Positions 16,153 through 54,939 are shown, counted from the first letter of the stretch. The stretch: 64,000 nt of DNA from Patescibacteria group bacterium (GCA_018896215.1 JAHINB010000006.1:2941-66940), one strand, 5' to 3'. Program-made: numbers and translations. The notes: generated by a model not told the origin, from the sequence alone.

Positions 16153-16187
16153 GGGGTGAGACCCAAAATCGGGTCTCACCCCTTTTT
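16153..16187. repeat. Perfect palindromic hairpin (12-bp stem ggggtgagaccc, 6-nt loop) followed by TTTTT on the plus strand. Sits in the spacer between two minus-strand genes.
   Basis: ggggtgagaccc aaaatc gggtctcacccc ttttt. Overlaps the stop codon 16176-16178 of the flippase gene and ends 8 nt before the ATG at 16144. Terminator-like on the plus strand, yet both flanking genes are on the minus strand. Confidence 0.7.
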
Positions 16188-33105: not shown

Positions 33106-33962
33106 TTCTTTGTTCTAACAATCAGATCCGCCAACATTCCAATAGCCAAAATTTGGAGTCCTGCAAGAAAGAACAGCATCGAGGAGGTGGTAATGTTTAA
33201 ATAAGGCTCGACAAATAAATCGTAAACAAATTTAACAAACCCCAGACCCATTAAACCTAAAGCTGGCCACAGAAAAAATCTTAAAGGGTTAAAATACATC
33301 ACGGTTCGCAAAATTAAAAACAAAAAATCCGCTCCGTCTTTAGCCTTAACTTTAGAGACTCCTTTTCTAAAATCATATTCAATAGGAATATATTTTACGC
33401 TAAGTCCATTGGACATATAGGACAGAGTTGAAGTAGTGGTAAATGAAAATCTATCCGAAATAAGATTAAAAAATGGCGTGATATCGGTTTTTCTAAAAGC
33501 GCGCAATCCCGAGTTGATATCCTCAATCTTTCTACCTACGACCAAATTTGCAACTTGATCTAAAATAAATTTTGGAGCCGATTTAATAAAGGGTGTTTTT
33601 TTGTATCTACCAATTCTCTTTCCTACCACCATGTCATAACTTGTAAGACCAGCCAAAAGTTCTGGGATTCTTTCTATGGGATAAGTTCCATCGGCATCAC
33701 AAATGGCAATTTGATCGTATTTTGCAAGTTTTATGCCGTCTTTTAACGATGCCCCGTAACCCTTATTAACTGTGTGATTTAAAACTCTAAATTCATCGTA
33801 GGAAATGGCTTGTAAAACACCCAGCGAGCTATCTTTTGACCCATCATTGACCGCAATTACTTCGAACTTTTCACCCATTGATTTACAAACAGCATAAACT
33901 CTGTCAATCGTGTCTTTAACCGCCTTTTCCTCATTGTAAACCGGAACCACAATAGAATACAT
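33102..33962 (-). CDS. Family-2 glycosyltransferase of polyprenol-phosphate sugar synthase type (ArnC/GtrB-like) with a C-terminal TM hairpin.
   Basis: MYSIVVPVYNEEKAV, VIAVNDGSKD, ICDADGTYP, and a C-terminal TM pair. The track start is TTG at 33980; ATG at 33962 matches the other GT2 N-termini. Confidence 0.75.
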   Translation of the reverse strand: MYSIVVPVYNEEKAVKDTIDRVYAVCKSMGEKFEVIAVNDGSKDSSLGVLQAISYDEFRVLNHTVNKGYGASLKDGIKLAKYDQIAICDADGTYPIERIPELLAGLTSYDMVVGKRIGRYKKTPFIKSAPKFILDQVANLVVGRKIEDINSGLRAFRKTDITPFFNLISDRFSFTTTSTLSYMSNGLSVKYIPIEYDFRKGVSKVKAKDGADFLFLILRTVMYFNPLRFFLWPALGLMGLGFVKFVYDLFVEPYLNITTSSMLFFLAGLQILAIGMLADLIVRTKK

Positions 33963-34045
33963 ATTATTTAATACTACCAAATTCTACCCCAACATGCCTG
34001 TAAGTAAAGGGTGACAAATAAGAAACCTTTTGATAGATTAAAATA

Positions 34046-38703: not shown

Positions 38704-38729
38704 TAAAAAGCAAAATGTCCCCAAAATCT
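38704..38729. repeat. 26-bp direct repeat, copy 1 (taaaaagcaaaatgtccccaaaatct); right boundary of the putative 1.4-kb insertion.
   Basis: Exact 26/26 match to 40142-40167. Overlaps the stop codon of the ATPase gene. Confidence 0.8.
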
Positions 38730-39981
38730 AGGTTAATAACCATTTCCAAACAGGCGTAAGACTAATTTCCTTGTCTCCAATTGTCTCCAACCCCTCTTGA
38801 TCGTAAGTTAATATCTGTAGATTATTACACGAAAGCTCCTTTCCAGCGGTAATTAAAGCTGAAATTTCCCTATCTTTTGTTTTTTTATCCGAAATATCGT
38901 AACAAACTTGAATTAGTTGTCTTTTGTTTAAATAAAAATCTACTTCCTTGTTATTATCAGTTTTATAAGAAAAAACTTCAAAATTTGGTCTAGCTCCACG
39001 CCTTAGTAGCTCCAAAAAAACCATGTTTTCTAAAAACTTTCCGTAATCGTAAGAAAATTGAAAAGCCTGGGCATCTGCCACACCAGTATCAATTAAATAT
39101 GCTTTTTTTGGTGATCTTATTTGCTCCTTAACTTTGTGAGAATACCTGTTTAATACACAAATTAAAAAAGCAGAAACAGAAAAATCAACATATTTTTTAG
39201 TAGTATGCAAACTAGAAATCCCCAAAGAAAATTGTAATTTTCTGTAGCTAAATTCCGAAGAAAAATTAGAAAATAGATAAAAAATCAAATCTCTAACTTC
39301 TTGTGGATTACGAACTTTGTACCTAGAAACGATATCGTTTAAGATAACAGAATCAATAAGAGAAGACAGATATACTTTGGGACTCAAATTCTGCATTACG
39401 AGTTCAGGAAAACCACCAGATTTTAGATAATCGTCAAAGTTATCTTTCAATAAAGGACTTAAACCCCCGCGGTCTATCTCTTTAGCCAAAAGAAATTCTT
39501 TAAAACTAAACGGCATAATTTTTATCTCGACAAATCTACCTGTTAAGTGAGTGGACAACTCTTGACTTAATAGGTTAGCGTTAGATCCCGTCAGAAATAT
39601 ATTGTATCCCCGTCTTTGTAGACCATTCACAAATAACTCCCAGTCGAGCAGGTTTTGTATTTCATCTAAAAATACAATCTTTGTATTTGGATAGACGCTA
39701 AACAAAGCTTCTTCTAACTTACTATGATTTTTACATCCCTTTATAATAGCGTTATCAAAATTGGCGTAGGCAAAAGATTTACCTTTAAGAAGCAACAAAC
39801 AAAAAGTCGATTTCCCCGATCTTCTTGGTCCGGTCACAACTTTAATTAAAGTTTTTTCGACAAGGTTTTTAGCATCGGCGGTTTTTTCTCTTTCTATAAT
39901 ACTTGTATTCAGAATAGAATTAATATCGTTTTTTTGCTTAAAAAGCTCGTTTTTGATCATTTTAATAGTCATAATGCACAA
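38728..39981 (-). CDS. AAA+ ATPase of the COG1373 / DUF4143 family (predicted ATPase often found in mobile or variable regions).
   Basis: Walker A VVTGPRRSGKSTF, Walker B IVFLDEIQ, about 417 aa; architecture typical of DUF4143 ATPases. Flanked by 26-bp direct repeats. Confidence 0.7.
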   Translation of the reverse strand: MCIMTIKMIKNELFKQKNDINSILNTSIIEREKTADAKNLVEKTLIKVVTGPRRSGKSTFCLLLLKGKSFAYANFDNAIIKGCKNHSKLEEALFSVYPNTKIVFLDEIQNLLDWELFVNGLQRRGYNIFLTGSNANLLSQELSTHLTGRFVEIKIMPFSFKEFLLAKEIDRGGLSPLLKDNFDDYLKSGGFPELVMQNLSPKVYLSSLIDSVILNDIVSRYKVRNPQEVRDLIFYLFSNFSSEFSYRKLQFSLGISSLHTTKKYVDFSVSAFLICVLNRYSHKVKEQIRSPKKAYLIDTGVADAQAFQFSYDYGKFLENMVFLELLRRGARPNFEVFSYKTDNNKEVDFYLNKRQLIQVCYDISDKKTKDREISALITAGKELSCNNLQILTYDQEGLETIGDKEISLTPVWKWLLT

Positions 39982-40124: not shown

Positions 40125-41825
40125 TTAGCGAGCGGAGAGTGTAAAAAGCAAAATGTCCCCAAAATCTTTCTCCAAAGTAAGGTTTTCCCTAAAAAACTTC
40201 TCGGGGTCGGCGGACTTAACAAAGTTTGGGTCAGATTTAATCTCCTTTTGTAGATCAGTTTTGCTAAAAACAATATAAGAAACTCCATAGCTTCTTGCAT
40301 GTTCCAAACCCTCTTGCGTTGGAAGCCATTTGGTAAATTCCATTGAATCAAAACCATATTCGTCATTTTCATAATTCCTTGGGTTTATTAAGCCTTTTTG
40401 ATGCCTTGTAATCCAAAAGATATCATCGGAATTTTGTCTTGGGTAAGTAACGATTATTTCGGTACCCGTGTATTGACCAATTCTTCCTGTTTCTCCAACA
40501 AAATTAAAACTCACTTTTTTTGTATCTTGAGCAAGGTAGGTATAAACCTCTGGTGTTTTAGAAACATCTGTTATCGTTATTGGTATGTAAAACTCAAATA
40601 GCGTAAAAACAATGTATCCTATGATTATTAATCTTACTAAAAGAAGTTTTGTTTTAAAGTTTTTATATCTAGTTACAATTTCGCTAAGAAAAACACCATT
40701 TACAATGAGAACGCACATTAATATCACTATCCCCAATCTTTGTGTAACCCTGAACATAGGAAACAATTTGTACAAAATAAATCCCAAAGTATAAATTTTA
40801 TGCCCCGCAAAATCAAAATAAGGGGGAAAAGTAAATAAAAACACCAGAAATCCCGTTAGTCCAAAAATTAATGCTGTTTTAATTTTGTCATTTGTCATTT
40901 GACATTTGGATCTCTTTACAAAATAAGCTATTGAAAAAATAAAAACTAAAATGTTCCCCCATCCCAAAAACATCTCGGGACTTTCATTATTAAAATAATC
41001 ATCCGCCAAAAAATACCCCCAATCGCTCTTCATCCAATTTAAAACCGATTTCGTAACCCCTCCAAATACTGGATTTTGAATTGGAGGCAAAACTAAATAC
41101 CACGGTCTGCCACTAAAATTCTGGAAATCTTCCAAAGTTCTACTCACACCCCCATCAAAAGATGGTGTAATCCTATATGAAGATTTAAAATAGGTAAGAA
41201 GTGTTGGGATACAAATTAATAGAACCACTCCAAAAATCACTAAATATTTAACGAGCTCTAATTTGAACCAACCAAAGGTGAACTTTTTAAAAGTTAGTTT
41301 GATAGTAATATTAGCTAACAAAAAACTGCCCGCAAAAAGCAACAAAAAATAACCTAAATAATTACTCACAAATATTGCAAAAGCGATAAACACCCCTGTG
41401 ATAATTTGTTGTTTTAAAGTCTGGGATTTGAGAAGTAAAATAATACCAGCTGGAATCATCCAAACTTGCATTAACGCAGGATGCACCCCTAAATGAAGAT
41501 AAGTGTAGGGAGAAAAAGTAAATAGGATTGACAAAAGAAGGCTTACAAATATATTAACCTTTAGATATTTAAAAAGCAAAAAGCAAAAAATCAGAAGCAA
41601 TAAAACGCTAATTATAGAAAACAGATTAGAGAATAATATTGGATTAAATATCTGTGACCCCTCATTATAAATTAAAGAAAATATTGGCTGATTACTTTCC
41701 AAAAGATGTGTGGGGTTGTTATTAAAAGGGGCACCAATTAGTTTTTTATTAGAGAGCGCAATAAACCCACCCACCTGGTCACCTAACCCACCAATGATAT
41801 TACTTTTTAGAAATTCTATGATCAT
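40125..41825 (-). CDS. Polytopic membrane protein of unknown family; its 3' end is remodelled by the insertion and it contains a heptanucleotide-repeat tract.
   Basis: 566 aa with more than 12 TMs. In-frame (TTTGWCA)3.5 at 40884-40912 encodes KCQMTNDKIK. The last 5 codons (TLSAR) lie inside the putative inserted segment. Confidence 0.35.
   Translation of the reverse strand: MIIEFLKSNIIGGLGDQVGGFIALSNKKLIGAPFNNNPTHLLESNQPIFSLIYNEGSQIFNPILFSNLFSIISVLLLLIFCFLLFKYLKVNIFVSLLLSILFTFSPYTYLHLGVHPALMQVWMIPAGIILLLKSQTLKQQIITGVFIAFAIFVSNYLGYFLLLFAGSFLLANITIKLTFKKFTFGWFKLELVKYLVIFGVVLLICIPTLLTYFKSSYRITPSFDGGVSRTLEDFQNFSGRPWYLVLPPIQNPVFGGVTKSVLNWMKSDWGYFLADDYFNNESPEMFLGWGNILVFIFSIAYFVKRSKCQMTNDKIKTALIFGLTGFLVFLFTFPPYFDFAGHKIYTLGFILYKLFPMFRVTQRLGIVILMCVLIVNGVFLSEIVTRYKNFKTKLLLVRLIIIGYIVFTLFEFYIPITITDVSKTPEVYTYLAQDTKKVSFNFVGETGRIGQYTGTEIIVTYPRQNSDDIFWITRHQKGLINPRNYENDEYGFDSMEFTKWLPTQEGLEHARSYGVSYIVFSKTDLQKEIKSDPNFVKSADPEKFFRENLTLEKDFGDILLFTLSAR
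40142..40167. repeat. 26-bp direct repeat, copy 2; left boundary of the putative insertion. Lies inside the 3' coding end (KDFGDILLF) of gene 40125-41825.
   Basis: Exact match to 38704-38729. Confidence 0.8.
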
Positions 41826-42762
41826 TAATTATTTTTTGAACTACAGCGTATGGTCTATTCTTTACCTCTTCTAATATTCTTCTTAGATATTCTGCGACAA
41901 TGCTTACACACACAAGCTGGACACTGCCAACAAATAAAACCAAAATAGCAACCGGAGAGAAAAGCCTTGCTCCAGTGGGGGCAAAAATTGCAACTCCCAA
42001 ATATAACAAAACCGTAATTAGTGTCACAAAAATTCCTACTATCGCAGAATAAAAAATCCAATCAAAAGGAGCGTAAGAAAAAGTAAATACCTCCTTGCGT
42101 ACCCAATATAATTTTCTTGAAACGCCACTTGTCGCAACACCAGTACCCCAGAACCTTTCTGGTCTAACATAAGAGACACCTATTTGTCTAAAACCCGCCC
42201 AAGCCCTAAGACCTCGTACAAATCTATCCTTTTCTGGAAGAGAGTTAATAATATCAACAACCTTACGATCCATTAGTGAAAACTCTCCCACATCAACCGG
42301 CATTTTGACATAGCTTATTCTACTAAAAAATACATGGAAATTATGTTGCACTAACTCCCAAAACTTTCCCATACTTTTTTCTCTTTTGCTTCTATGTCCA
42401 TACACCACATCGTAACCTTCTTGCCATTTTTTAACAAAGTCAACAATAAGCTCTGGGGGATCCTGCAAATCACCATCCATTATTACTACTGCATCACCAA
42501 GAGCTTGCTCCATCCCTGTAGAAAACGCGCTTTGATTGCCAAAATTCCGGGAATGCGTAATTACAGTCACTCTTTTATCTTTTCCGGCAAGGCTTTCTAG
42601 AATCTCCTGTGATTTGTCAGGACTGGCATCATTTACATAGATTATTTCGTAGTCAGAAGTTACTTCTTGCATTACTTTGACCACTCTTTTGTAGAGTTCT
42701 TCTATATTCCCCTCGTCTTTGTACGATACAGGAACTATGGATATTTTTTTCTTGGTAAGCAT
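41800..42762 (-). CDS. Family-2 glycosyltransferase, GtrB/ArnC-like polyprenol-phosphate sugar synthase with a C-terminal TM hairpin.
   Basis: ISIVPVSYKDEGNIEEL, IYVNDASPDKS, VIMDGDLQDPPE, and C-terminal TMs (IFYSAIVGIFVTLITVLLYLGVAIF...). Confidence 0.75.
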   Translation of the reverse strand: MLTKKKISIVPVSYKDEGNIEELYKRVVKVMQEVTSDYEIIYVNDASPDKSQEILESLAGKDKRVTVITHSRNFGNQSAFSTGMEQALGDAVVIMDGDLQDPPELIVDFVKKWQEGYDVVYGHRSKREKSMGKFWELVQHNFHVFFSRISYVKMPVDVGEFSLMDRKVVDIINSLPEKDRFVRGLRAWAGFRQIGVSYVRPERFWGTGVATSGVSRKLYWVRKEVFTFSYAPFDWIFYSAIVGIFVTLITVLLYLGVAIFAPTGARLFSPVAILVLFVGSVQLVCVSIVAEYLRRILEEVKNRPYAVVQKIINDHRISKK

Positions 42763-45700
42763 ACTTTGTTAAAAACTAAGTACTCCTTTAGCTTTATTAC
42801 CCCACGGATTATCACATAAGTTAGAGAAGAAAAGAAAGTAGTAAGACAAATCCCAATAAGTAGGTCTATTTTCCTTTGCACTACATACTCAACAGTCAGC
42901 GTATAACTTGATGCATCACCAACATCCTCGGGTTCTATTTTCCACAAATTAGCATAACCATTGATTTTAAAATGACGAGTTGATGAGATTTCATTTCTAC
43001 CTTTAAAATATAGCTTCCAATTCTTATCAAACGATTCGTTAAAAACCAGGTTGTAGGAGTCTCCTGACTCATCAACTTGAACCCGATATTTTGTAGGGTT
43101 GATTTTTGTATAAGTGATATTAGGGGGTCTGGTTTTCTGTTGCTTCTCGTCACTGACTTTCTTTAAAACCACCGAGGGGCTTCCTGCCTTCGCAAACGAG
43201 ATATTCATAAAATCAACTTTTGACTTTAACTTATCGTTTATTAGAAACTCTTGTTTTAGAAATAGTAGGGAATTAGTATCTTTTTTTAACTCCATTTCGT
43301 TGTAATATGCTCCAGCCCCACTAAACTTTTCGGAAAATATTTTATACCCGCCATCTTGTTGCACACCAACAACAGCAAACCCTAAGATATCTTTAGAAAA
43401 ATTATAATCCAAAGATATACTGTAGCTACCACTGAGCTCTTTTGAGTCTACAAACTTATAATAAATATCACCCCCCTCTTCCAAAAAAAGAGTTTTGGCG
43501 AGATCGGCATAGTTATTCTCACCAATTAAATTGGATTTGTGCCATGGTTCGGTTCCCGCCAATATATTTTTCCCCCTTGGAATATCAAGAAAAAAAGAAT
43601 ATTCTTTACTATCCTCAAGTGATGTATTTCCAATGTTATACCACCCCTTAACAATATCTAAGGATGGCGTTAATTTAAATCCGGTGAGTCCGATTTTATC
43701 TCCTTTAATAAAAACATTGTAACTTCCTTTTTCTGGTACAGTGACCAAATAATGTCCCCGAGACAAATAATCCCGCTTACCGACTCCGTAAATTTGATTT
43801 GGAGAAAAAGATTCTTTTACAGAGGAAAAGTCTATGTCTTCCAAAAACAATCCTGTTGAACTTAATGCTCCTGTAAAACTTAGAAGCTCTGAAATGTCTT
43901 CTATCTCTCCATTTACATAGTAAATATTACCTATGGGATAAAATTTTTGAGAATCTTCCGTTCCATCTACTTGGTAAATCTCGAGGGCGGGTCTATTCAG
44001 AAGTTCCTTGTATAGCTCATTTTTTAGATTAACATTAGGATCGTCATTGACAATTGTCTCCAGATATTCCGGCGTAAATTTTCCAAATTCTGCCACTTTT
44101 ATAACATTTAACTTTTTTATCCAATCATCAAGTTGGCTCGGCGATAAAGTTAGTTCTCCAGAATATCTCCAATCTAAATCGTTTTCGCGAAGAATATACT
44201 TAACGCCCAAAAAGTTAAAATAATTTGAGTTTACATTACTATCACTATAAAAATTTCCAACTACTTTTTCGGAAGTGGATCCTGTATTTATTGGTCTTCC
44301 AAGAATTGTATTACCATTGCTTACAAAATTGACAGCGACATCATCAGCACTGGAAAAACCCTTAGGCCAATTCCAAGCCGACCCATAATAAGTTTTTGGA
44401 ACAGTAAGAATTCGTTCGTCTTTTAAATTCTTTTTTTGGAATTTGTAAAAGTCATCCCAATATTGAGGTACAGATACTCTAAAAGTTCGCATACTTCCAT
44501 TCCATTTATCCCAAACATGCTCACCTAAAATTGCTGGCTTACCAAAAATAAATACCAAAAATAAAAATAAAATGAAGATATTTGTTCTAAAATAGGGCTT
44601 AATCCAGTCTCTAATCCCCAACAACAATCTGTAAAAAAGAAGGGAGAATGCCAAAACATATAACTCACCAAACTTGGTAAAAGGCTCTCTAAAAACCTTA
44701 AAAGCAGAGATGTGATCGTATAAAAACCTGTACAAAATACCAAAGGGGGGTCTTGAACCACCAACCAAAAATAAACTAATCAAAAGAAACACCAACGCAA
44801 ACAATGCTGGTCTATCTTTTTTTAGCGCCAATACAACCCCATACCCCATCGTAAGAGCGACAACTAGGTAAGTAGCAATAACTACAAGAGGAGAATCGTA
44901 ATACTGGCTAAAGGGATAATAATTATAGAGATAGTGCCCCTCATACCAACCCCACTGACCAATAAATCTAAGATTTTGAAACAAGCTACCTTGATTTGTA
45001 AAGTCAGACCAATTACCATTAGAAAGTATCCCAACGCTGGAAAAATAGTATTGAACTTGCGCTACAATCCACCATAAATTACACAAGATCAAAACCATTG
45101 AATATAAAAACAGATTTAAGAGCTTAATTTTGCTCAGTCTATGAAGATTAAATATTAAATAGATGAGTTGGGGGATAAAAATCGTCATGGATAAAGCAGG
45201 ATTAGAATTTAATGAGGAAAAAATAACACTAGATAAAGCAATTATCGAAAGAGTCAAATAGTCTACTCTTTCACTTTTCAAAAGACGAACAAAGAGATAC
45301 AGGGAAAGGGGAAGATATGCCCCATCTAAAAGATAAAGATAAGAGAATGGATTTAGAGCTCCAAAAGGATTAAAAACAAGCAAAAGACACGCTGGAATAC
45401 AAGCAAAAAGCAAAAATCTTTTAAAAAGTGCTTTTGAAAGCAAAAAAAACCCAAAATATTTTAAAAAATACAGAGTAAAAATTAACAAACGCTCCGAAAT
45501 GTCTTGGGATAAAAAACACGTAAGCTTTGAATATAAGGGAATTCCAAACAAATTTGCTACATCGTAACCTGGTCCACCAAACGGAAGAGACTCCTTCCAA
45601 GAATAATTATTTGTGGTTTCTTTACAAAGTTGTAGGTACTGATAATTATCTCCACCCGCAAGTAGATGTCCATCACCAAATAACAATTGGATGTGAATAA

Positions 45701-45779
45701 TCTCTATAACCGCAATTAAAAAAAACAAAAGGACTCCTGGGGTTTTTATTGACTTAGTCAACGATAATTTTACTCCCAC
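42735..45779 (-). CDS. Giant membrane protein (1014 aa): N-terminal polytopic GT-C-like domain, large extracytoplasmic domain, C-terminal TM anchor. Tandem paralog of 46128-49799.
   Basis: Blocks shared with its paralog: LLAGGDNYQYLQL, FIGQWGWYEGHYLYNYYPF, FKVFREPFTKFGELYVL, LGEHVWDKWNGS, DDVAVNFV, ENDLDWRYSGELTLSPSQ, NGYANLWKIEPED. Confidence 0.5.
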   Translation of the reverse strand: MGVKLSLTKSIKTPGVLLFFLIAVIEIIHIQLLFGDGHLLAGGDNYQYLQLCKETTNNYSWKESLPFGGPGYDVANLFGIPLYSKLTCFLSQDISERLLIFTLYFLKYFGFFLLSKALFKRFLLFACIPACLLLVFNPFGALNPFSYLYLLDGAYLPLSLYLFVRLLKSERVDYLTLSIIALSSVIFSSLNSNPALSMTIFIPQLIYLIFNLHRLSKIKLLNLFLYSMVLILCNLWWIVAQVQYYFSSVGILSNGNWSDFTNQGSLFQNLRFIGQWGWYEGHYLYNYYPFSQYYDSPLVVIATYLVVALTMGYGVVLALKKDRPALFALVFLLISLFLVGGSRPPFGILYRFLYDHISAFKVFREPFTKFGELYVLAFSLLFYRLLLGIRDWIKPYFRTNIFILFLFLVFIFGKPAILGEHVWDKWNGSMRTFRVSVPQYWDDFYKFQKKNLKDERILTVPKTYYGSAWNWPKGFSSADDVAVNFVSNGNTILGRPINTGSTSEKVVGNFYSDSNVNSNYFNFLGVKYILRENDLDWRYSGELTLSPSQLDDWIKKLNVIKVAEFGKFTPEYLETIVNDDPNVNLKNELYKELLNRPALEIYQVDGTEDSQKFYPIGNIYYVNGEIEDISELLSFTGALSSTGLFLEDIDFSSVKESFSPNQIYGVGKRDYLSRGHYLVTVPEKGSYNVFIKGDKIGLTGFKLTPSLDIVKGWYNIGNTSLEDSKEYSFFLDIPRGKNILAGTEPWHKSNLIGENNYADLAKTLFLEEGGDIYYKFVDSKELSGSYSISLDYNFSKDILGFAVVGVQQDGGYKIFSEKFSGAGAYYNEMELKKDTNSLLFLKQEFLINDKLKSKVDFMNISFAKAGSPSVVLKKVSDEKQQKTRPPNITYTKINPTKYRVQVDESGDSYNLVFNESFDKNWKLYFKGRNEISSTRHFKINGYANLWKIEPEDVGDASSYTLTVEYVVQRKIDLLIGICLTTFFSSLTYVIIRGVIKLKEYLVFNKVCLPRKKYP

Positions 45780-46131
45780 TTTTTTTTAGTTTCTTAAAAA
45801 ATGCAACTACCAGATAAAAATATGCCCAAATAGAAATTTTCTCGGCGACAGTTTCAAGACTAAGAAACTTAAGCGGCAGCACCAAAGACAGTAATACTAT
45901 TGAAAGCATCAGGTACCAATCATGTTTTCGTGTATACACCAATTCGCACAGTAACCACAAAACCATTAAGGGAAAAAATACAAACGAATAAACAAACTCT
46001 AGCAATACCATATCCATCAAAACACCCAGCATGAACAGGAAAAGCAACATAACCTTGTTTTTTACCAGGAATTTCTTAAGGAGCTTCAGCAATCTTGCAA
46101 CTTTTAATTTTAATTTAAGAATTATCTTCAT
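45754..46131 (-). CDS. Small 4-TM membrane protein (125 aa), possibly a GtrA-like flippase subunit.
   Basis: Basic N-terminus KLKLKVARLLKLLKK followed by four hydrophobic helices. Its start and stop overlap the two giant genes, suggesting translational coupling. Confidence 0.35.
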   Translation of the reverse strand: MKIILKLKLKVARLLKLLKKFLVKNKVMLLFLFMLGVLMDMVLLEFVYSFVFFPLMVLWLLCELVYTRKHDWYLMLSIVLLSLVLPLKFLSLETVAEKISIWAYFYLVVAFFKKLKKSGSKIIVD

Positions 46132-49100
46132 GACAAACTATGAACTCTAATAGCAGTGATAAATTTAAACATTCGTGCCGTTATAAAATATATCGTGGCT
46201 ACCAAAAATGTGCTCAAACTCAAAATAACACAAATCCTAAAAATCCTTTGTGGGTAAAACTCGATGACTAATGTATAACTTTCTTTATTATCTGCATCCT
46301 CGGGACTTACATGCCACAGATTTGCATATCCATTAACAATATCATGACTAGAATTAGAAATAAGTTTTGTCCCATCCAGATACATTCTCCAACCACGATT
46401 GTAACTCTCACTAAAAATTAAATCGTAAGGATCGGTTACTCCTGAAACACTAACCTTGTACTTAGTCGAATTTATCTTAGAAAACACTATGTTAGGAACA
46501 GTTGGGGTCGTATCTAGCGACTTATTCCCCCCTTTCTTAACTACAATGATGGGTTCTAACACCTCCTCTACACTAATATTCTTTACCCTTACATGGGAAG
46601 CCTTCCGAGCATACGGGTAGGCATAAATGTAAAATAGCGCCGACTTAGCATCGTTACTTGCCCTAAAAATCTTTTTGTAACTACGCCAACAATTGGACTC
46701 TCCAGATCTATCCAAACAGCTCTGATCTAATTCAGCCTTGACTAAAACTTTAGTCAAAAGCAACTGACTATTAGAGATTGGGGTTTGAACTGGGGAATTT
46801 GATTCAATAATAGCTATGCCCAAGCCTCCCGAATCAGTCGAATACTCAAAAGATACCGAATATTTCTTACCACTCTCAAAATTTTCCAATGGTTTGTAAT
46901 GTATCATGTCGTCCCACAAAACTAGGCTAGATTCTATTTCCCTAGGACGAGCGATATCTGAACCAAGCACATAATAACCCGGAAAAATGTTTTGCATAAC
47001 AAAATCTGCACTTGAACTATCTAAAGTAGCGAAGTTCGGAACCAACCACCCGCCAGAACCAATTAAATTCTTACCTTTAGGGAGCGATAAATTTACAATA
47101 TAATTTTTGCCTTTTTGAAATGTGGTAATACCATCGTAATACCAACCTTTTATCTCATCCTTTTGGTTTTTGACCTCCGTGTATTCCAAATCAGCAATTT
47201 TGACTTTTGGCAAAATTAGTTTTGCCAAAACACTATCACCAACATAAACACTGTACCTCCCATCTTCCGGAACTTTAAAAGTGTAACAGTAATCGCCACA
47301 ATCGGGGGTCGAGACCTCGTAAATCCAAGCAACAAAGTTTTTATATAGAACTCTAGGATCTTTGCTGTTACCAAAAGTATATTCAGAAAGAGGAATGGTT
47401 GCGTTGGATCTCTCAACATACATTAACACCTTACCCACCATTCCCCAAAAATCCCCCTCACTTTCATCGTCATTCATTATTTTTTCCTTTGGAACATTTT
47501 TAAGCACCTCCATTGATTGATCTACCAGATTCGCATAATCCCTAACAAGTTGTTCCTCTAATTGTGGGGGTACTCTATACTTAGCTATCTCCGCAGCTCT
47601 TTTTGCAGCAAGCCAAAGTAACAAGTCCGCCTTATCAAGGGGGTTTTTGGGGATAGCTTTTTCTATATCTTCCTTTACCTGCACAAATTTGTACTTAAAA
47701 TCTGTGGGATTCGTGTTAACCACAACCGGCCAAGCCCAACCCTCTTTCCATGTTAAATTTTCCAAGGAAAACCGCGAAAACTTTCTAGTACCAAAAATTA
47801 CTCTATCTGCGGATTCTCTCAAAGGTGATTCATCAACCTTCTCTGTATCTTTTATAAAAACCCCAATACCCTTTGCATAATTAGATGTACTCAAAACATA
47901 GGGTAACTCTTGAATAGTTGACCACGAATATACGAGATCTTTCGGAATGTAAAACTTCGGCAATTTATTATCTTCTGGAACCTTATACAGAACTAAAGCG
48001 GGTCTCCCTGTAAGTTCGGCATAGAGCTCTTCTCTTAAAGAAGTATTTGCTTCTCCGTTAGGTATTTTTAAAAGATACTTTGGGTCAAATTCGCCAAACT
48101 CTTGGATCTTTTCAACACCTAACTTATTAATTGCTAAATCATTTTGACTGGGTGGCAGAGTCAACTCCCCCGAATACCTCCAGTCTAAATCATTCTCTTG
48201 CAATATATAATCAACAGATAACAATGCGAGATAATTCTTAGGCAAGTCCGCAACCCGAAATATATTATCTATAACTTCACCCGCTTCGGAACCTGAAGCA
48301 ATGGGGTTTCTCAAAACACTGTTTCCCCCATCCACAAAGTTTACCGCTATGTCATCGGCTGATGAAAATCCATAAATCCAATTCCAAGCTCCACCATAAT
48401 AGGATTTTGGGGTAGTTAGTATTCGAGCATCTTTTAAATTATCGTGAGTAAATTTTTCAAATTCTTTCCAGTATGTTGGTATATTTATCCTTGAAGTTCT
48501 AACGCTCCCATTCCACTTAGACCACACATGCTCGCCCAAAAGAACTGGTTTTGCGTTCATAAGAACTAACAACAAAACGAACATAAATAATCCAAATTTC
48601 CACTTTCCCTGAAAACGCTTTTCAATATTTGTGAGTGCTACATAAAATAAAACCGAGAAGGATAGCACATACAATTCACCGAATTTTGTAAAAGGTTCTC
48701 TAAAAATCTTGAATCCGGGAAAGTAATTAAACAACAAGGTGTAAACGAAACCAAAAGGCGAACGAGACCCCCCTACCAAAAACAGGGAGAGCAAAAATAG
48801 AGCAATAAAAAAGATTTGGGGTTTTCTTGAACTCACTTTTTGTCCAAAAGACAAAGCGATCGTAAAAATAACCAATGCATAGCTAAAAAAGAAAATGGTT
48901 GGCTTGTCATACCAATCATGAAATGGGTAATAATCGTATAGAAAGTGTTTGCCGTACCAACCCCACTGCCCAATGAATCTAAAATTCTGATACAAGTGCC
49001 CCACCGATGAAGCAGAAAACCACCCGCTCTTAAAAACCCTATTTGCATTTTCCATATAATAATAAAGCATAGGTGTTACCCACCACAAATTTACCAAAAT

Positions 49101-49799
49101 AAAGGCGATGTAATAACTTAATACATTTAAAACCCTCGCTCTATGCATATTCTTTATTGATAAAACTAGATACAAAGCCTGGGGAATAAATATGGTCACA
49201 GACAAAGCAGGATTTGAATTTATGGGAGTGAAAATCACCGATAACACCAGTAACTTAAATATGTAAGAAAAACTAAAACTTTTACTTTCTACCAACTTAA
49301 TAAAATAATATAAAGAAAGTGGAAGATATGCCCCATACATTAAAGGAAAAAATGAAAATGGATTCAAAGATCCAAATGCGTTAAATGAAAAAAGCACCGT
49401 TGCAGGAAGAAGCGCAAATACGGAAAATTTCCGGGAGAATAATCTCGTTAATTTGTAGAAACCCACGAACCCAAAAAAATACAAACAGAAAATCAACAGC
49501 CTTTGAAGAACAGCCGTTGATAGAAAGCTAAACAGTGTTGAATAGAGGGGAAATCCCAATAAGTTTGGGGTTGCGTTGTTTATACCCCCTAAAGGAATAG
49601 CGGTATCCCAAATGTATAAGTTAAATGCCCTCTTTCCCAATTGTAAGTATGTGTAATTATCTCCACTAGCCAACAGTTCGACATCACCAAACAGAATGTA
49701 TACATAAACTGCTTCCAAGATTGCAATACAAAGAAAAAATAGCACTTCGGGTCTAAAAGCAAGTTGTTTAATTTTTGGAATACCCATTTTTATCACCAT
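46128..49799 (-). CDS. Giant membrane protein (1223 aa); tandem paralog of 42735-45779 with an additional insertion of about 200 aa in the extracytoplasmic domain.
   Basis: Conserved blocks: LLASGDNYTYLQL, FIGQWGWYGKHFLYDYYPF, FKIFREPFTKFGELYVL, LGEHVWSKWNGS, DDIAVNFV, ENDLDWRYSGELTLPPSQ, NGYANLWHVSPED. C-terminal TM ICVILSLSTFLVATIYFI. Confidence 0.5.
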   Translation of the reverse strand: MVIKMGIPKIKQLAFRPEVLFFLCIAILEAVYVYILFGDVELLASGDNYTYLQLGKRAFNLYIWDTAIPLGGINNATPNLLGFPLYSTLFSFLSTAVLQRLLIFCLYFFGFVGFYKLTRLFSRKFSVFALLPATVLFSFNAFGSLNPFSFFPLMYGAYLPLSLYYFIKLVESKSFSFSYIFKLLVLSVIFTPINSNPALSVTIFIPQALYLVLSIKNMHRARVLNVLSYYIAFILVNLWWVTPMLYYYMENANRVFKSGWFSASSVGHLYQNFRFIGQWGWYGKHFLYDYYPFHDWYDKPTIFFFSYALVIFTIALSFGQKVSSRKPQIFFIALFLLSLFLVGGSRSPFGFVYTLLFNYFPGFKIFREPFTKFGELYVLSFSVLFYVALTNIEKRFQGKWKFGLFMFVLLLVLMNAKPVLLGEHVWSKWNGSVRTSRINIPTYWKEFEKFTHDNLKDARILTTPKSYYGGAWNWIYGFSSADDIAVNFVDGGNSVLRNPIASGSEAGEVIDNIFRVADLPKNYLALLSVDYILQENDLDWRYSGELTLPPSQNDLAINKLGVEKIQEFGEFDPKYLLKIPNGEANTSLREELYAELTGRPALVLYKVPEDNKLPKFYIPKDLVYSWSTIQELPYVLSTSNYAKGIGVFIKDTEKVDESPLRESADRVIFGTRKFSRFSLENLTWKEGWAWPVVVNTNPTDFKYKFVQVKEDIEKAIPKNPLDKADLLLWLAAKRAAEIAKYRVPPQLEEQLVRDYANLVDQSMEVLKNVPKEKIMNDDESEGDFWGMVGKVLMYVERSNATIPLSEYTFGNSKDPRVLYKNFVAWIYEVSTPDCGDYCYTFKVPEDGRYSVYVGDSVLAKLILPKVKIADLEYTEVKNQKDEIKGWYYDGITTFQKGKNYIVNLSLPKGKNLIGSGGWLVPNFATLDSSSADFVMQNIFPGYYVLGSDIARPREIESSLVLWDDMIHYKPLENFESGKKYSVSFEYSTDSGGLGIAIIESNSPVQTPISNSQLLLTKVLVKAELDQSCLDRSGESNCWRSYKKIFRASNDAKSALFYIYAYPYARKASHVRVKNISVEEVLEPIIVVKKGGNKSLDTTPTVPNIVFSKINSTKYKVSVSGVTDPYDLIFSESYNRGWRMYLDGTKLISNSSHDIVNGYANLWHVSPEDADNKESYTLVIEFYPQRIFRICVILSLSTFLVATIYFITARMFKFITAIRVHSLS

Positions 49800-49830
49800 A
49801 TGTATGGGTAACTCCCCTGACTAAAAATAA

Positions 49831-52125
49831 TTAATCACTATAAAAAACCCGAAATTGTAGACCGGGAATATTCTTCTCTTCCGTAGCTACACCAAAATCA
49901 CCAGGTATCATAGTACTTTTGGCTTCTATTGTGGCCGTCTTGGTGTCTGGATTCCAAGAAAGTGTGCTGATATTTGAAAAAACCTTCTGAATATTGTCCA
50001 CATTTTCTGGCAATCCCTCAACCCTAATTCTGTAAGTACCCTTAAAAAATACCCTAAATCTGGTGCTATGACAATACAAGCCTGCTGTTCTGGCCCCAAT
50101 TCCAATGTCGCTGGGAGGCTCAACTTTCTTGCCATCGGATACATACTTCGTATCGGGGTAGGAGTAGCAAGGAGGAAACATATAACCATCCTTTAAGGTA
50201 GCCATATTAAAGGTTAGCGACTTCGGAAAAAAGTAATGAGACATGTCTTTAAACCCCACACTGTAATTTAAACTAATATTGGAAACCCGTTCTTTAAGTT
50301 TAACAACCGCATACTGAGTTTCCAAAAGAGAATCTATTTCCGGATTCCATGTAATTCCAAGCACCTTCCAAGCAAAATACTTTGTTATGTGCATATAAAA
50401 TGCACCAAAAGTTGGAAATCGGTAAAAAATTTTCTCCATATACTTATCAATAAACGCCCTCTGGTTGTGGGTTCCTAAATCAACATTTTTCGTCGTATAA
50501 ACCAAACCAATGTTCCAATAAGGCCAAAGAACATAACGCACATCCTTGTTCTTTTCCTCCGTGATTTTTTCCAAAGAGTCACTTCCTATAGTTTTTGGTG
50601 TGTAACCAGTAAACCACATCATCTTTTGAATCATTTCCTCTTTCGCAATGCCCAAATCAGAGGCTAGCTTCTCTGTATCAATATAGGTTAACGGAAAATT
50701 TCCCTTTTCTGGAAAATCCGTTCTTATCATGTCGACAGTAATTAACACTCTTAGAGAGGTAGTAATCAGGAAAATTCCAAGGAAACCAAAGAGAACCTTC
50801 TTTAGAGACCATCTTTTCAGAGGATCTAGAATCAGAACAGCTTTTTCTAATACCATGGATAAGAGCATTATTCCCAAAAATCCTATCGGGACCCCCCATC
50901 TGGACCAGTGAACAACTCGCATGGAAACCCCTAAATAGTAAAACACCAGCGATAGCGCTAGAACAAGTCCTGTGTAAGGATACAGATCCCCTTCAAAAAT
51001 ACTTCTTATGTTAACTTTTTGTAGCATTTTATTAAAAATCTTTCTTAAATCGTTTTTCTTAACGAGAATAAAAAGTAAAAGAACTAGTACGACAGCCACA
51101 AGGGCTGATAGTCCCAAATATTCAGCAAAAAAATCATATATATAAACCTTCCAACTCCCAAAGGATTGACTCGGATAATCAAAATCAAACTGCGTACTGT
51201 GAACAGTTGCTTTCTTTACCCCATACCAAAATCTAATGTAATCAAAAGGCTTAGGCATAAAAATCACCCAAAGAAGAATCCCGCCAAAAAAAATCCCAGC
51301 GGTGTAAAGGACAGATTTGTATAGATAATTTATGCTAAAAGAGGTGTGTTTCTGTCGCGACCATAAAAATGAATTTACTGTTGTGATGGAAAAAATTGGA
51401 AGAAACAAGAATAAAGACTTTAAATTGGTAAAAGAGCCCAAAAACAAAAATGCGAGATTAATCACAAAAGTTTTGGCAACCGATGCCTTGCTTTTTTGTA
51501 ACCAGAAAGAGATGATAAGATAATTCAAAAAAACTATTACCATCATCGAGTCAGAATTTATCCTAATAAATCTCTCCAAAATTCCTGGGGATGCGAAATA
51601 CAGAACACTAAAAAAGACTGAGCGCAATTTAATTTTGCTATCGTTCTTTTGCAAGACAATAAGTCCTAAGATATAGGCCAAAATATAGAGGATGAATCCA
51701 AACCAATGACCCCAAAAGTATGTGGCCAACGAGGGATCGCCTTGGGGAAAATTTACCCCTGAGCTAGTAACTAGATTTATAAAAGAAAAAAACCCCGCAA
51801 GCAAATATTCGGTTAAAGCGACATGAATATAATTGTGAAGTTCTTGACCAGCCATTATAGTAAAAGCATTAAAATAAAACTGATATTCGTCGGAGTGAGC
51901 CATAGTTCTGGATACTATAGGGATGGTGATGATAAGACCAAAGACAAAAACTAAAATCAAAGGAATAATAAGTAGGTTTGCTAATAAACTCCTTTTAACA
52001 AACAAGTATATCTCCCTAACGGTAGCGTTTTTTCTTAAGTATTTCCAAAACTCTATTATTTTTTTTCTAGCAACATTTATTATTGTTAATATTTTCATAG
52101 GTTTATTTTGTAACTTTAGGAACAC
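49831..52125 (-). CDS. Polytopic membrane protein, GT-C-like (ArnT/PMT_2-like) with a C-terminal soluble domain of about 350 aa.
   Basis: AHSDEYQFYFNAFTIMAG acidic loop after TM1 and about 12 TMs. Confidence 0.45.
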   Translation of the reverse strand: MFLKLQNKPMKILTIINVARKKIIEFWKYLRKNATVREIYLFVKRSLLANLLIIPLILVFVFGLIITIPIVSRTMAHSDEYQFYFNAFTIMAGQELHNYIHVALTEYLLAGFFSFINLVTSSGVNFPQGDPSLATYFWGHWFGFILYILAYILGLIVLQKNDSKIKLRSVFFSVLYFASPGILERFIRINSDSMMVIVFLNYLIISFWLQKSKASVAKTFVINLAFLFLGSFTNLKSLFLFLPIFSITTVNSFLWSRQKHTSFSINYLYKSVLYTAGIFFGGILLWVIFMPKPFDYIRFWYGVKKATVHSTQFDFDYPSQSFGSWKVYIYDFFAEYLGLSALVAVVLVLLLFILVKKNDLRKIFNKMLQKVNIRSIFEGDLYPYTGLVLALSLVFYYLGVSMRVVHWSRWGVPIGFLGIMLLSMVLEKAVLILDPLKRWSLKKVLFGFLGIFLITTSLRVLITVDMIRTDFPEKGNFPLTYIDTEKLASDLGIAKEEMIQKMMWFTGYTPKTIGSDSLEKITEEKNKDVRYVLWPYWNIGLVYTTKNVDLGTHNQRAFIDKYMEKIFYRFPTFGAFYMHITKYFAWKVLGITWNPEIDSLLETQYAVVKLKERVSNISLNYSVGFKDMSHYFFPKSLTFNMATLKDGYMFPPCYSYPDTKYVSDGKKVEPPSDIGIGARTAGLYCHSTRFRVFFKGTYRIRVEGLPENVDNIQKVFSNISTLSWNPDTKTATIEAKSTMIPGDFGVATEEKNIPGLQFRVFYSD

Positions 52126-53146
52126 CTAATTCTAAAAAAGCAAGTATTTTGTGGGGTAAAAAGTACATATTTTTCATAACTTCTATATCACCAACGGTAC
52201 GAATCTGCTGAATCTGCTTTCTCTTACTAAATGTGCTTTTTATATTTTTAATATTCCATACATACGCCCTAAAGTATGAATTGTAGGCAGAAGAAGCCTG
52301 TCCAGTTAGAACCAAAGCCACAGCCTCAACTATATTAATACAAAAATAGTATAGCAAAATCCACCAAACATTCCAAACAGAATAATTTTTTAGGATATTT
52401 CGAATAATATTCCTTTCGGCCAAAAATCTTCTCTTAGAGTTGGTAACATATTTTTCTTTGGGATTTGGATACCCACCAATACCAACGCTACCACCACTAA
52501 AATGGTAGATAACAGAATCAAAAACTGGAATCACAGACATCCCCATTAAGTGAGCTTTCCATGAGAGATCTACATCTTCGGCAAACAAAAAAGTGACTTC
52601 GTCCATCATTCCAATTTTAATGTAGTTCTCTCGTTTCATAAAAACACTAGTCCCATCAGCATAAAAGATTTTTTTTAACCTTTTTTTACCATCCCTGCTA
52701 TAAGTTCTTGCAGGATATCCAAAAATGTCAGCTGCGATCCCGCAGCTAATAAATTCTTTGCCATCGTAGGTCATTTGTCTTGCGGTATATATTTGTTCGT
52801 CATCTTTTTCCGCAGCTTTAACGAGCAGTTCCACACATTTCGGATCAGTCCAAGTATCGGGACCTAAAAGAAATATATATTTTCCGGTCGCATTTAAAAC
52901 TCCAAGATTGTTTCCAGCCGCACAACCCGCATTTGTGGGAGACACCACTACCTGACCTCTTTTAATTCTTTTTTGGGCGTCAACAACTGTATTATCTGGA
53001 GATAAACTATCCACAAAAATTACCTCAATATTTGGGTAGGATTGATTATTAACAGAATCAAAATATTTTTGATTAAATCTTTCGTTTTTATAGGCTGTGG
53101 TGACAATAGAAACCAGTGGCTCTTTAAATTTTCTATCTTTTGGCAT
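52103..53146 (-). CDS. Glycosyltransferase family 2 (rhamnosyl/glucosyl-transferase-like) with a single C-terminal TM.
   Basis: PLVSIVTTAYKNERF, IEVIFVDSLSPDNT, and a DXD-like FAEDVDLSWK. Confidence 0.7.
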   Translation of the reverse strand: MPKDRKFKEPLVSIVTTAYKNERFNQKYFDSVNNQSYPNIEVIFVDSLSPDNTVVDAQKRIKRGQVVVSPTNAGCAAGNNLGVLNATGKYIFLLGPDTWTDPKCVELLVKAAEKDDEQIYTARQMTYDGKEFISCGIAADIFGYPARTYSRDGKKRLKKIFYADGTSVFMKRENYIKIGMMDEVTFLFAEDVDLSWKAHLMGMSVIPVFDSVIYHFSGGSVGIGGYPNPKEKYVTNSKRRFLAERNIIRNILKNYSVWNVWWILLYYFCINIVEAVALVLTGQASSAYNSYFRAYVWNIKNIKSTFSKRKQIQQIRTVGDIEVMKNMYFLPHKILAFLELGVPKVTK

Positions 53147-54044
53147 TTCTAAATTTTAACATTTTGTTTAAGTACGACTCTAAAGCTATTTCCCAATTTC
53201 TCATAACTTTAAGACCCAATTTATGAATTTTCTGATTAATAGCGACCTCAAAAGGCGGTCGTGGTGCATAATAATTCTTGGCAAAAAAATCGGAGGTGAC
53301 CTCCGTCAGCTTAACATGACTAAAATCAAAAAATTCAATTATCTTTTCTGCTACATCGTAACGAGAACAATTTCCTTCGCTAACCATATGATAAAGTCCC
53401 GAATCGGCTACGCGCAACATTTTTACAATACCCTTAGAAAAATCCTCGGTGTATGTAGGACAACCAAACATATCAGTAAGAGCGTATAACTCGGTCTTCC
53501 CTTGATCAACTTGATCCAAAATCTTTTTAACAAACTTTTTATCTCTGTCAAAACCACCCATCATCCAACCCGCTCTAAAAATGTGATAATTCCCTTTTAA
53601 TATTCTCTGTACCGAAAGATCACCTTGGTGCTTGGCCTTTCCATAAACATTTACTGGGTTGGGTTTATCTTCTTCGGTATAAGGGATTTTTTTTGTCCCA
53701 TCAAAAACTCCAGCGGTACTGATATGAACCATTGGGATACCGTATTTTTTGCAGACTAAAGCTACATTTTCGGCTCCTTGGGCATTAGTTTCGTAAGCTT
53801 CGTTGGAATGGGATTCACAATATTCAACATCTGTAAGTGCTGCAAAATTAAAAATATAATCGGGTTTTATTTTTTTAGCCAGCAAAGATATGGAATTTTT
53901 ATCTCTTACATCCAACCTTTGCGTCCAAGGGTCTAGGGGTTTAAGATCCGTGGAAACAATATCAAACAAATTTTTAAAGGTACTATAAAAGGTTGTGCCT
54001 AACATACCAGAAGCACCAGTTATTAGGATACGATTTTTTTTCAT
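53133..54044 (-). CDS. RmlD-like SDR (dTDP-4-dehydrorhamnose reductase family).
   Basis: ILITGASGMLG, LDVRD, PDYIFNFAALTDVEYCE, VHISTAGVFDG...NVYGKAKHQGD, IFRAGWMMG; length 303 aa. This order and spacing of motifs is typical of RmlD. Confidence 0.65.
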   Translation of the reverse strand: MKKNRILITGASGMLGTTFYSTFKNLFDIVSTDLKPLDPWTQRLDVRDKNSISLLAKKIKPDYIFNFAALTDVEYCESHSNEAYETNAQGAENVALVCKKYGIPMVHISTAGVFDGTKKIPYTEEDKPNPVNVYGKAKHQGDLSVQRILKGNYHIFRAGWMMGGFDRDKKFVKKILDQVDQGKTELYALTDMFGCPTYTEDFSKGIVKMLRVADSGLYHMVSEGNCSRYDVAEKIIEFFDFSHVKLTEVTSDFFAKNYYAPRPPFEVAINQKIHKLGLKVMRNWEIALESYLNKMLKFRNAKR

Positions 54045-54075
54045 AAAACAAGAAATACCACTAAAGCTACGGGGG

Positions 54076-54939
54076 CTAGTCTAACATAATATTTCGAAAC
54101 AGAAAATCCCCAACTGTTATAGGTCCATAACCTTTATCGGTAAAATTTCTAAAATAAACCAACTGAAAATTAAATTTATCGCTATACAACAAAGAGTTGA
54201 TTTGGCTAAAGGTGTAATTATTGTTATCTTCTAAACTTATCTCTATATGTAAATACTTTGTTTTGATAAGAGTCTTTTGAGCCCCTCTTAAAACATGAGC
54301 CTCGTAACCTTCGGTGTCAATTTTTAAAAGGTCAATGACCCTAATTTTTTCTTGAAGACACCAGTTATCCAAAGTTGTGGATCGCACTTTAACAGTTTTA
54401 CCACTATCCTTTGCATCCCTATCAATAACATGACTAACGGCGGACTCTTGATCCTTAAAACTCATAGAAACCATTCCATCCTTATCTGAAATAGCAACAC
54501 CATATACTTTGTCAAGGTTAGAAGTGAGGTTTGCTTTAAGATTTGTAAAAATCTGCGGGACAGGCTCTATAGCATAAATTTGCGCTTTTGGATAAAGTTC
54601 TCGTAGCATCATAGAAAAAAACCCTACATTAGCACCAATATCAACAATTGTATTTGCCGTCTTTGAACCCGCATCGCGCAACATTCTTTGTTGCCTCACT
54701 AACATACTTTGATACCCTGCAATTCCATAAGGGGAATCGTAAAAAATCCTTTTTCCAAAAAGATTGGTGTAATTCTCCCCAAAGACAAATTTTTTTATTC
54801 CTGATGAAAGCAAAAATAACTCCCAGTATTTTTTAAAAAGAAATTCTATTTTCTTAGAAAATTCCCAATGACAAACTGCAAACATCCCCAAATCAAGTTC
54901 AATTGAGGATTTAACAAACCAAAACATTCCTTTTATCAT
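54076..54939 (-). CDS. FkbM-family SAM-dependent methyltransferase.
   Basis: DIGANVGFFSMMLRELYPKAQIYAIEPVPQIFTNLKANL and KIDTEGYEAHVL (FkbM domain signatures). Confidence 0.7.
   Translation of the reverse strand: MIKGMFWFVKSSIELDLGMFAVCHWEFSKKIEFLFKKYWELFLLSSGIKKFVFGENYTNLFGKRIFYDSPYGIAGYQSMLVRQQRMLRDAGSKTANTIVDIGANVGFFSMMLRELYPKAQIYAIEPVPQIFTNLKANLTSNLDKVYGVAISDKDGMVSMSFKDQESAVSHVIDRDAKDSGKTVKVRSTTLDNWCLQEKIRVIDLLKIDTEGYEAHVLRGAQKTLIKTKYLHIEISLEDNNNYTFSQINSLLYSDKFNFQLVYFRNFTDKGYGPITVGDFLFRNIMLD

Follow-up and report, generated by a model that had tools for sequence, protein, structure and literature searches.

An AftD-family glycosyltransferase pair and its small membrane neighbour in a glycan-assembly operon of Patescibacteria

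What is the function of two giant membrane proteins whose genes enclose that of a very small one and are followed by the gene for a GtrB-type enzyme? The four genes lie in 64,000 nt of DNA from a Patescibacteria group bacterium (GCA_018896215.1 JAHINB010000006.1:2941-66940), the window analysed here, to which all coordinates refer unless a related locus is named. An earlier, sequence-only reading of this DNA had proposed a supersized Gtr-type unit, in which the small protein would be the flippase GtrA and the transferases would have acquired very large extracellular domains. The giants are GT-C glycosyltransferases of the existing AftD family (PF11847), and we favour, with moderate assurance, a reading in which their operon decorates a cell-surface glycan at the outer face of the membrane and the small protein is a conserved membrane partner of an AftD-like giant. 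The features on which this reading turns are the following (aa, amino acids; GT2, glycosyltransferase family 2; TM, transmembrane).

46128-49799, minus strand: 1223-aa AftD-family GT-C, apparently the long, ancestral-type form (PF11847, paralogy to the modelled 1014-aa protein, TM scan)
47286-47780, minus strand: segment of the 1223-aa giant (aa 674-838) that is missing from the 1014-aa paralog (mapping of alignment gaps)
45754-46131, minus strand: 125-aa small membrane protein, four TM helices preceded by an amphipathic one (model, family alignments)
42735-45779, minus strand: 1014-aa AftD-family GT-C, apparently the derived, short paralog (PF11847, structural model, Foldseek match to 6w98_A)
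41800-42762, minus strand: 320-aa GtrB-type polyprenyl-phosphate glycosyltransferase (PF00535, NCBIfam PgfS and ArnC, phmmer match to 5ekp)

These co-directional open reading frames (ORFs) overlap by 4, 26, and 28 nt, in agreement with the overlaps of 4 to 28 bp described before; the 4-nt overlap is an ATGA that can be read directly in the sequence. The same gene boundaries appear in an independent gene call on an identical metagenome contig in ENA. The 1014-aa gene begins with GTG, followed by GGGAG, and has an in-frame TTG six codons downstream (45759-45779, minus strand). This TTG could be the true start, in which case the overlap with the small gene would be 8 nt and not 26.

The giants as AftD-family enzymes

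Against PF11847, for which the Pfam gathering cut-off is 26 bits, the 1014-aa protein scores 48.3 bits and the 1223-aa protein 27.1 bits, and most homologues have a precomputed match to the same model. At NCBI, the giants already carry an AftD-family name: the entry identical to the 1014-aa giant, listed under a Candidatus Parcubacteria bacterium, is called 'alpha-(1->3)-arabinofuranosyltransferase family protein'. Structural evidence comes from the 1014-aa paralog, which is the one covered by the AlphaFold2 model and the Foldseek fold search. The best match of this model (26 homologues; pLDDT 79, pTM 0.75) in PDB is AftD (6w98_A, E 1.1e-20, probability 1.00, TMq 0.54). Three Mycobacterium abscessus AftD entries rank first (E 1.1e-20 to 3.8e-18, TMq 0.51-0.54), and STT3 oligosaccharyltransferase subunits come next at E 1.7e-6. 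The sequence-only reading had proposed checking the giants for an AftD-like or GT-C fold, and both the PF11847 scores and the 6w98_A match give a positive answer.

The STT3 matches could also be taken to mean that the acceptors of the giants are proteins (S-layer or pilus subunits, for example) and not a polysaccharide, the giants acting in the manner of oligosaccharyl- or mannosyltransferases. Many PMT_2-type enzymes are encoded in the surrounding DNA, and a 566-aa protein of the same operon weakly matches the C-terminal domain of an archaeal oligosaccharyltransferase (3vgp, E 0.021), both of which would fit a protein acceptor. However, the AftD match is far stronger (E 1e-20 versus 1e-6) and spans the whole chain, the beta-sandwich modules of AftD bind long glycans (AftD paper), and the operon has rhamnose-pathway and GT2 genes typical of glycan building. 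We therefore regard protein glycosylation as an improbable function of the giants.

In the model, a TM domain (aa 1-417) is followed by a soluble alpha/beta domain (about 420-660), beta-sandwich modules (about 662-965), and a single C-terminal TM helix (967-1007). In the 1223-aa giant, the polytopic N-terminal domain reaches to about aa 423, and an extracytoplasmic domain separates it from the one C-terminal TM helix (aa 1185-1210). A hydropathy scan finds both giants to be polytopic to about residue 420, with a long non-hydrophobic stretch and exactly one C-terminal hydrophobic helix, which together with the model confirms the N-terminal polytopic domain, outer domain, and C-terminal anchor described earlier. 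According to the AftD paper, AftD consists of a GT-C fold formed by TM1-11 and a large periplasmic part, in which a beta-sandwich accompanies three carbohydrate-binding modules; after this come TM12, a long loop, and a TM13-16 bundle. The large outer domain of the giants is thus normal AftD-family architecture and not an addition to Gtr transferases, as had been supposed.

Residues that are invariant across the 26 homologues include D44 in the first outer loop, R364, E365, K369, and D480 (1014-aa numbering); in the 1223-aa giant, the invariant Asp of the GDNY motif is D47. The AftD paper reports K39, D41, E251, K361, and D474 as essential, and the invariant residues of the giants lie at positions resembling those of D41, K361, and D474, a correspondence drawn from position only. 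The same paper describes the TM13-16 four-helix bundle as binding acyl carrier protein (ACP) at the inner face and as essential in mycobacteria, where a stop codon at T1285 removes the bundle and function is lost. Such a bundle is missing from both giants and from all relatives examined. A single C-terminal TM helix is found in every giant examined, including five more distant relatives.

By sequence comparison, the two giants are true paralogs. BLASTP aligns residues 17-673 of the 1223-aa protein with 14-668 of the 1014-aa protein (about 658 N-terminal residues) at 47% identity (E = 0) and their C-terminal 400 residues or so at 27% (E 2e-37), and all of the near-identical motif blocks quoted in the sequence-only reading are visible in the alignment. 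Similarity between the paralogs is highest in the catalytic half and lowest in the outer beta-rich modules, suggesting that they probably serve two different acceptor sites or linkages. The length difference of about 200 aa is mainly accounted for by two alignment gaps, of 120 and 39 residues, within aa 674-838 of the longer giant, and four smaller insertions in the beta-rich region add to it. DUF5667 gives a weak match over aa 697-768 of the 1223-aa protein (E 0.0036, under the cut-off).

In a neighbour-joining tree built on the N-terminal 650 residues, the proteins of about 1010 aa form one clade nested inside the family of about 1200 aa, sister to the group that holds the long giant of the window. 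This nesting favours a loss from the shorter paralog over an insertion into the longer, so that the segment reported earlier stands but is less well read as an insertion. On this tree, the short form is better read as the product of a duplication and the loss of a segment of about 160 aa. Orthologues of the long giant (about 1170-1240 aa) occur in candidate division WWE3 and other metagenome-assembled genomes (MAGs) of Patescibacteria.

A still shorter form is found in the closest WWE3 relative (locus L007, 9067-11274, protein P0002), where the second giant has 735 aa, aligns with only the first 61% or so of the 1014-aa paralog, and appears to be without beta-sandwich modules and C-terminal helix. 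The P0002 cluster comprises five sequences on five contigs; this short giant is therefore probably real and not an assembly error.

The GtrB-type enzyme and the small membrane protein

The 320-aa protein is, as judged from its sequence and in line with the earlier assignment, a genuine GtrB-type polyprenyl-phosphate glycosyltransferase. It matches PF00535 and, over its full length, the NCBIfam models for PgfS and ArnC. In phmmer searches, residues 6-309 match Synechocystis GtrB (sll0501, 5ekp) at E 4.5e-61, compared with 3e-27 for ArnC. Identity to GtrB of phages SfV and P22 is about 33% over the full length, and the C-terminus carries a TM hairpin (aa 231-293). With a GtrB-type enzyme as the adjacent donor synthase, a sugar other than arabinofuranose is probable. 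The ORFs scanned in the window gave no Pfam match to an enzyme of the decaprenyl-phospho-arabinose pathway.

The model of the 125-aa protein (pLDDT 88) has an N-terminal amphipathic helix followed by four membrane helices, in agreement with the four TM helices noted before. Lys/Arg clusters at both ends of the chain and in the TM2-TM3 loop indicate an N-in/C-in topology, as needed if the protein is to follow a TM12 with a cytoplasmic end. The family is small, with 50 relatives recovered at E <= 0.001 when 1.84 billion representative proteins were searched with its profile, and family alignments show conserved motifs at D40, P86, A96-E97-K98, and W102. The small protein has no Pfam match, and the only Pfam domains in 46 relatives are TIG domains, in fused forms. 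Comparison by hhalign of its family with the giants and with the families of two other membrane proteins of the operon (566 and 764 aa) returned nothing.

The sequence-only reading took this protein to be GtrA (PF04138), which the sequence tests do not support. PF04138 has no match at E <= 10 in the window protein and four other members of the family (nor any at E <= 0.1 in a separate scan of the window protein), and none at E <= 0.01 in 46 further relatives, while GtrA of phages SfV, ST104, and epsilon34 score 54-63 bits in the same search. The hhalign probability for the small-protein family against GtrA is 0.2%. By every sequence test applied, the protein falls outside the GtrA family.

The small gene instead follows the giants. 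Related loci were compared as L001-L018, of which L001 and L002 are near-identical copies of the window. The small gene lies directly 3' of the giant in 14 of the 19 cases with a readable 3' flank, in loci whose giants are 27-45% identical (some only 27-31% identical to those of the window), and among the five exceptions are three short second copies that themselves come straight after a small gene. A GtrB-type gene is present only beside the short paralog (the window with L001/L002, L006, and L007), L003 has a short paralog without a GtrB gene, and most loci with the small gene have no close GtrB homologue within the flanks read. The small protein thus tracks the GT-C enzyme and not GtrB. This synteny and the ATGA overlap make it reasonably probable that the small protein is a translationally coupled partner of the AftD-like giant.

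Even so, the small protein might be a GtrA-like flippase by function if not by homology, so that the locus would be a three-component Gtr system with oversized GT-C transferases. It resembles GtrA in its length of about 120 aa, its four TM helices, and its N-in/C-in topology, and its gene shares an operon with a true GtrB and GT-C enzymes. Tandem-duplicated forms, common for small transporters, exist in the family, and in the literature the flippase role of GtrA itself is still only proposed. None of the nine genes of the operon matches a recognised flippase family in Pfam or NCBIfam, which keeps a flippase role alive as an alternative. Against it stand the missing PF04138 and hhalign signals, a gene order that differs from gtrA-gtrB-gtrC, fusions of the domain to extracellular TIG-domain proteins, and the synteny, in which the small gene is tied to the 3' end of the giant even where the flanks read hold no close GtrB homologue and GtrB accompanies only the short paralog. 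We consider the flippase function unlikely on balance.

A role comparable to that of GacJ (DUF2304), which would have the small protein bind the polyprenyl-phosphate GT2 and raise its activity, finds even less favour and is in our view very improbable. In the literature, the membrane protein GacJ (113 aa) forms a complex with the GtrB-type GacI and raises its activity, and a mycobacterial homologue stimulates PpgS; in the window, the GtrB-type gene is two genes downstream of the small gene. However, DUF2304 has no match in the window protein or its relatives, and GacJ has three TM helices, compared with four and an amphipathic helix here. Further, GacJ genes adjoin or are fused with the GT2 gene, whereas the small gene follows the giant and persists without a GtrB-type gene.

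In the mechanism that we favour, the GtrB-type GT2, whose enzyme class is shown, would use a nucleotide sugar to charge polyprenyl phosphate at the inner face, and the lipid-linked sugar would then be flipped across the membrane. The two giants, whose AftD family and fold are shown, would pass it on to a polymer that their beta-sandwich modules hold as the acceptor; here we infer both acceptor and linkage. The small protein may dock on a giant as a separate subunit, in place of the TM13-16 bundle of AftD. This placement is favoured because the giants stop after the equivalent of TM12 and the next, coupled gene encodes four helices of approximately bundle size, the 125-aa protein being about as large as the part of AftD removed by the T1285 stop. 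An extension of this idea, tentative and rather doubtful at present, is that the small family is the free-standing counterpart of AftD TM13-16, which would make AftD enzymes two-part systems, with a regulatory or docking module that is fused in Actinobacteria and split off in Patescibacteria.

AftD was not reached in the PDB sequences by phmmer with the 1014-aa protein or by hmmsearch with the 26-sequence profile; the relationship of the giants to AftD is therefore remote, and it is the Pfam model and the fold match that tie them to this family. Several observations weigh against the substitution of the bundle by the small protein. The small-protein domain is not fused to the C-terminus of a long GT-C enzyme, or of any long protein, among the 1.84 billion representatives. 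Its family profile finds only chance-level matches in the PDB sequences, with no AftD at E <= 10, and a Foldseek comparison of the small-protein model with PDB is empty at E <= 10, which neither supports nor firmly excludes a match to AftD TM13-16. The conserved polar residues lie near the outer membrane face, opposite to the inner face where the AftD bundle contacts ACP. Nor is the domain exclusive to AftD-like enzymes, as it is also found in fusions with IPT/TIG-domain proteins (P0057, P0061, P0071, and P0077) and as tandem duplicates of about 210-240 aa (P0052, P0060, P0084, and P0086). Finally, no separate small gene lies downstream of the 1014-aa paralog.

Mycobacteria depend on AftD for their cell wall, and a clear structural relative of this essential enzyme is now seen in Patescibacteria, with their tiny genomes. 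Should the small protein prove to be the bundle in detached form, or else a new type of flippase for lipid-linked sugars, it would shed light on the regulation or supply of GT-C enzymes. A split AftD would mean a new protein family and a minimal split system in which the role of the bundle can be probed where ACP regulation may be absent. Otherwise, the locus is a well-explained and already annotated member of a known family in a large glycan island.

The nine-gene operon and its genomic setting

The functional unit is larger than the region of 41800-49799 that holds the four genes. It is an operon of nine genes (40125-54939, minus strand) in a WWE3-like genome, with overlaps or gaps of <=31 nt throughout, whose other members are listed below.

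40125-41825, minus strand: 566-aa polytopic membrane protein at the end of the operon, probable GT-C-type transferase (hhalign to the TM domain of the giants)
49831-52125, minus strand: 764-aa polytopic membrane protein of no recognised family (conserved neighbour of the giants by synteny)
52103-53146, minus strand: 347-aa GT2 glycosyltransferase with one C-terminal TM helix (PF00535)
53133-54044, minus strand: 303-aa dTDP-4-dehydrorhamnose reductase, RmlD (TIGR01214, 226.5 bits against a cut-off of 224.05; PF04321, E 9e-65)
54076-54939, minus strand: 287-aa FkbM-family methyltransferase, first gene of the co-directional run (PF05050, TIGR01444)

The common order in related loci is FkbM methyltransferase, 764-aa membrane protein, RmlD, 347-aa GT2, long giant, and small protein, then optionally the short giant and GtrB, and then the 566-aa membrane protein, whose gene is syntenic downstream of the small protein in loci with a single giant. 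The 566-aa protein has no Pfam or NCBIfam match and carries a conserved G12..D16 N-terminal motif and an extracytoplasmic C-terminal domain. Its family aligns with the TM domain of the giants in hhalign (91.9% probability, E 7e-7), suggesting that it probably represents an undescribed GT-C family. The 764-aa family has an invariant HPDEYQF after TM1 and a mean column identity of 62% among relatives, with no match in Pfam, NCBIfam, or the PDB sequences, nor to the giants by hhalign. Its gene is syntenic in L001, L003, L005, L007, L008, L010, and L013, with a tandem duplicate in L013, and that of the FkbM methyltransferase in L001, L003, L005, L007, and L008.

The 347-aa GT2 might be a second donor synthase that makes the lipid-linked sugar for the long giant; its PDB matches are generic GT2 enzymes with no GtrB-type match. 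In four loci (L005 7956-9953, L008 7895-9907, L010 7868-9919, and L013 7818-9923), an RmlD-like reductase and a GT2 of the 347-aa type are fused into one protein of 665-701 aa, encoded immediately upstream of the giant, which suggests that this GT2 uses the 6-deoxyhexose made by the reductase. Two of these loci (L010 9935-15489 and L013 9941-15376) have giants of only 827-847 aa, followed by the small protein and a polytopic protein of 854-867 aa, the latter without BLAST similarity to the operon proteins of the window. An AAA_14/DUF4143 ATPase gene (38728-39981, minus strand) lies between the operon and three plus-strand PMT_2 genes of the window, and a homologue comes after the 566-aa-type gene in L017.

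The homologues found are almost all from Patescibacteria, mainly WWE3 together with some Saccharibacteria MAGs. Two loci in this otherwise Patescibacteria-restricted set are labelled Pseudomonadales (L009) and Gammaproteobacteria (L015), possibly through mis-binning or mislabelling.

The window has a GC content of about 36% and, up to about 57 kb, is almost wholly a glycan-assembly island. The island encodes a Bac_transf initiating transferase, many GT4 and GT2 enzymes, a MurJ-type flippase (16176-17726), a Wzy_C-PMT_2 fusion, and about a dozen separate ORFs with PMT_2/PMT-type GT-C matches, some under the Pfam cut-off, which lie within 1-38699. The fusion (3568-6552, minus strand) joins Wzy_C (O-antigen ligase/polymerase) to a PMT_2-type GT-C in a 994-aa protein, and a similar 997-aa fusion is present in L005. 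Further candidate polyprenyl-phosphate GT2 enzymes are encoded at 13992-14990, 20699-21385, and 33102-33980, and an LPG_synthase_TM protein at 13084-13983. Near the edge of the window (61826-63962, minus strand), a gene for an RfbH-type dehydrase (E 5e-170, above the cut-off) adjoins one resembling sugar 4,6-dehydratases (below the cut-off), a predicted pair that points to 3,6-dideoxyhexose synthesis.

Comparison with known systems

The GT136 pentofuranose systems of Citrobacter and others resemble this locus in performing extracytoplasmic glycosylation after polymerisation, with a lipid-linked donor and a GT-C enzyme that has a C-terminal carbohydrate-binding module. They differ in using a phosphoribose synthase and a MATE flippase, neither of which is among the Pfam matches of the operon proteins here. 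In Streptococcus pyogenes, GacI, GacJ, GacK, and GacL provide a GtrB-type synthase, a small accessory protein, and a GT-C enzyme that modify a rhamnose-containing wall polysaccharide, and rmlD is likewise part of the operon described here. However, GacJ is a DUF2304 protein with three TM helices that partners the GT2, whereas the small protein here has no DUF2304 signal and would partner the GT-C; the operon also has no Wzx-type flippase.

The Gtr systems of phages SfV, P22, and epsilon34 share the principle of a GtrB-type synthase that feeds a GT-C transferase at the outer face. The order here is giant, small gene, giant, and GtrB, in contrast to gtrA-gtrB-gtrC, and the small protein falls outside the GtrA family. 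As AftD-family members, the GT-C enzymes here have two to three times the size of their Gtr counterparts, and the operon has two GT-C paralogs and at least one further GT-C-like protein.

The closest counterpart of the giants is AftD itself (Rv0236c of M. tuberculosis; M. abscessus 6W98; PF11847), with which they share the Pfam family and the overall fold: a polytopic GT-C domain at the N-terminus, whose first outer loop holds an Asp at a similar position, an alpha/beta domain, beta-sandwich modules like carbohydrate-binding modules, and a TM12-like re-entry helix. Identity in the Foldseek alignment is only about 11-12%, and the giants have 1014 and 1223 aa, compared with an average of about 1381 for AftD. 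The ACP-binding TM13-16 bundle is not part of their chain; a separate four-TM gene without detectable similarity to AftD follows instead. The AftD paper reports homologues only in Actinobacteria, whereas the host here belongs to the Patescibacteria. A literature search found no paper linking AftD with the candidate phyla radiation, and its single DUF3367 match concerned M. abscessus. New in comparison with these systems is an AftD-type enzyme of Patescibacteria that lacks the ACP-binding bundle, is paired with a GtrB-type synthase, and has a conserved small partner without a Pfam match.

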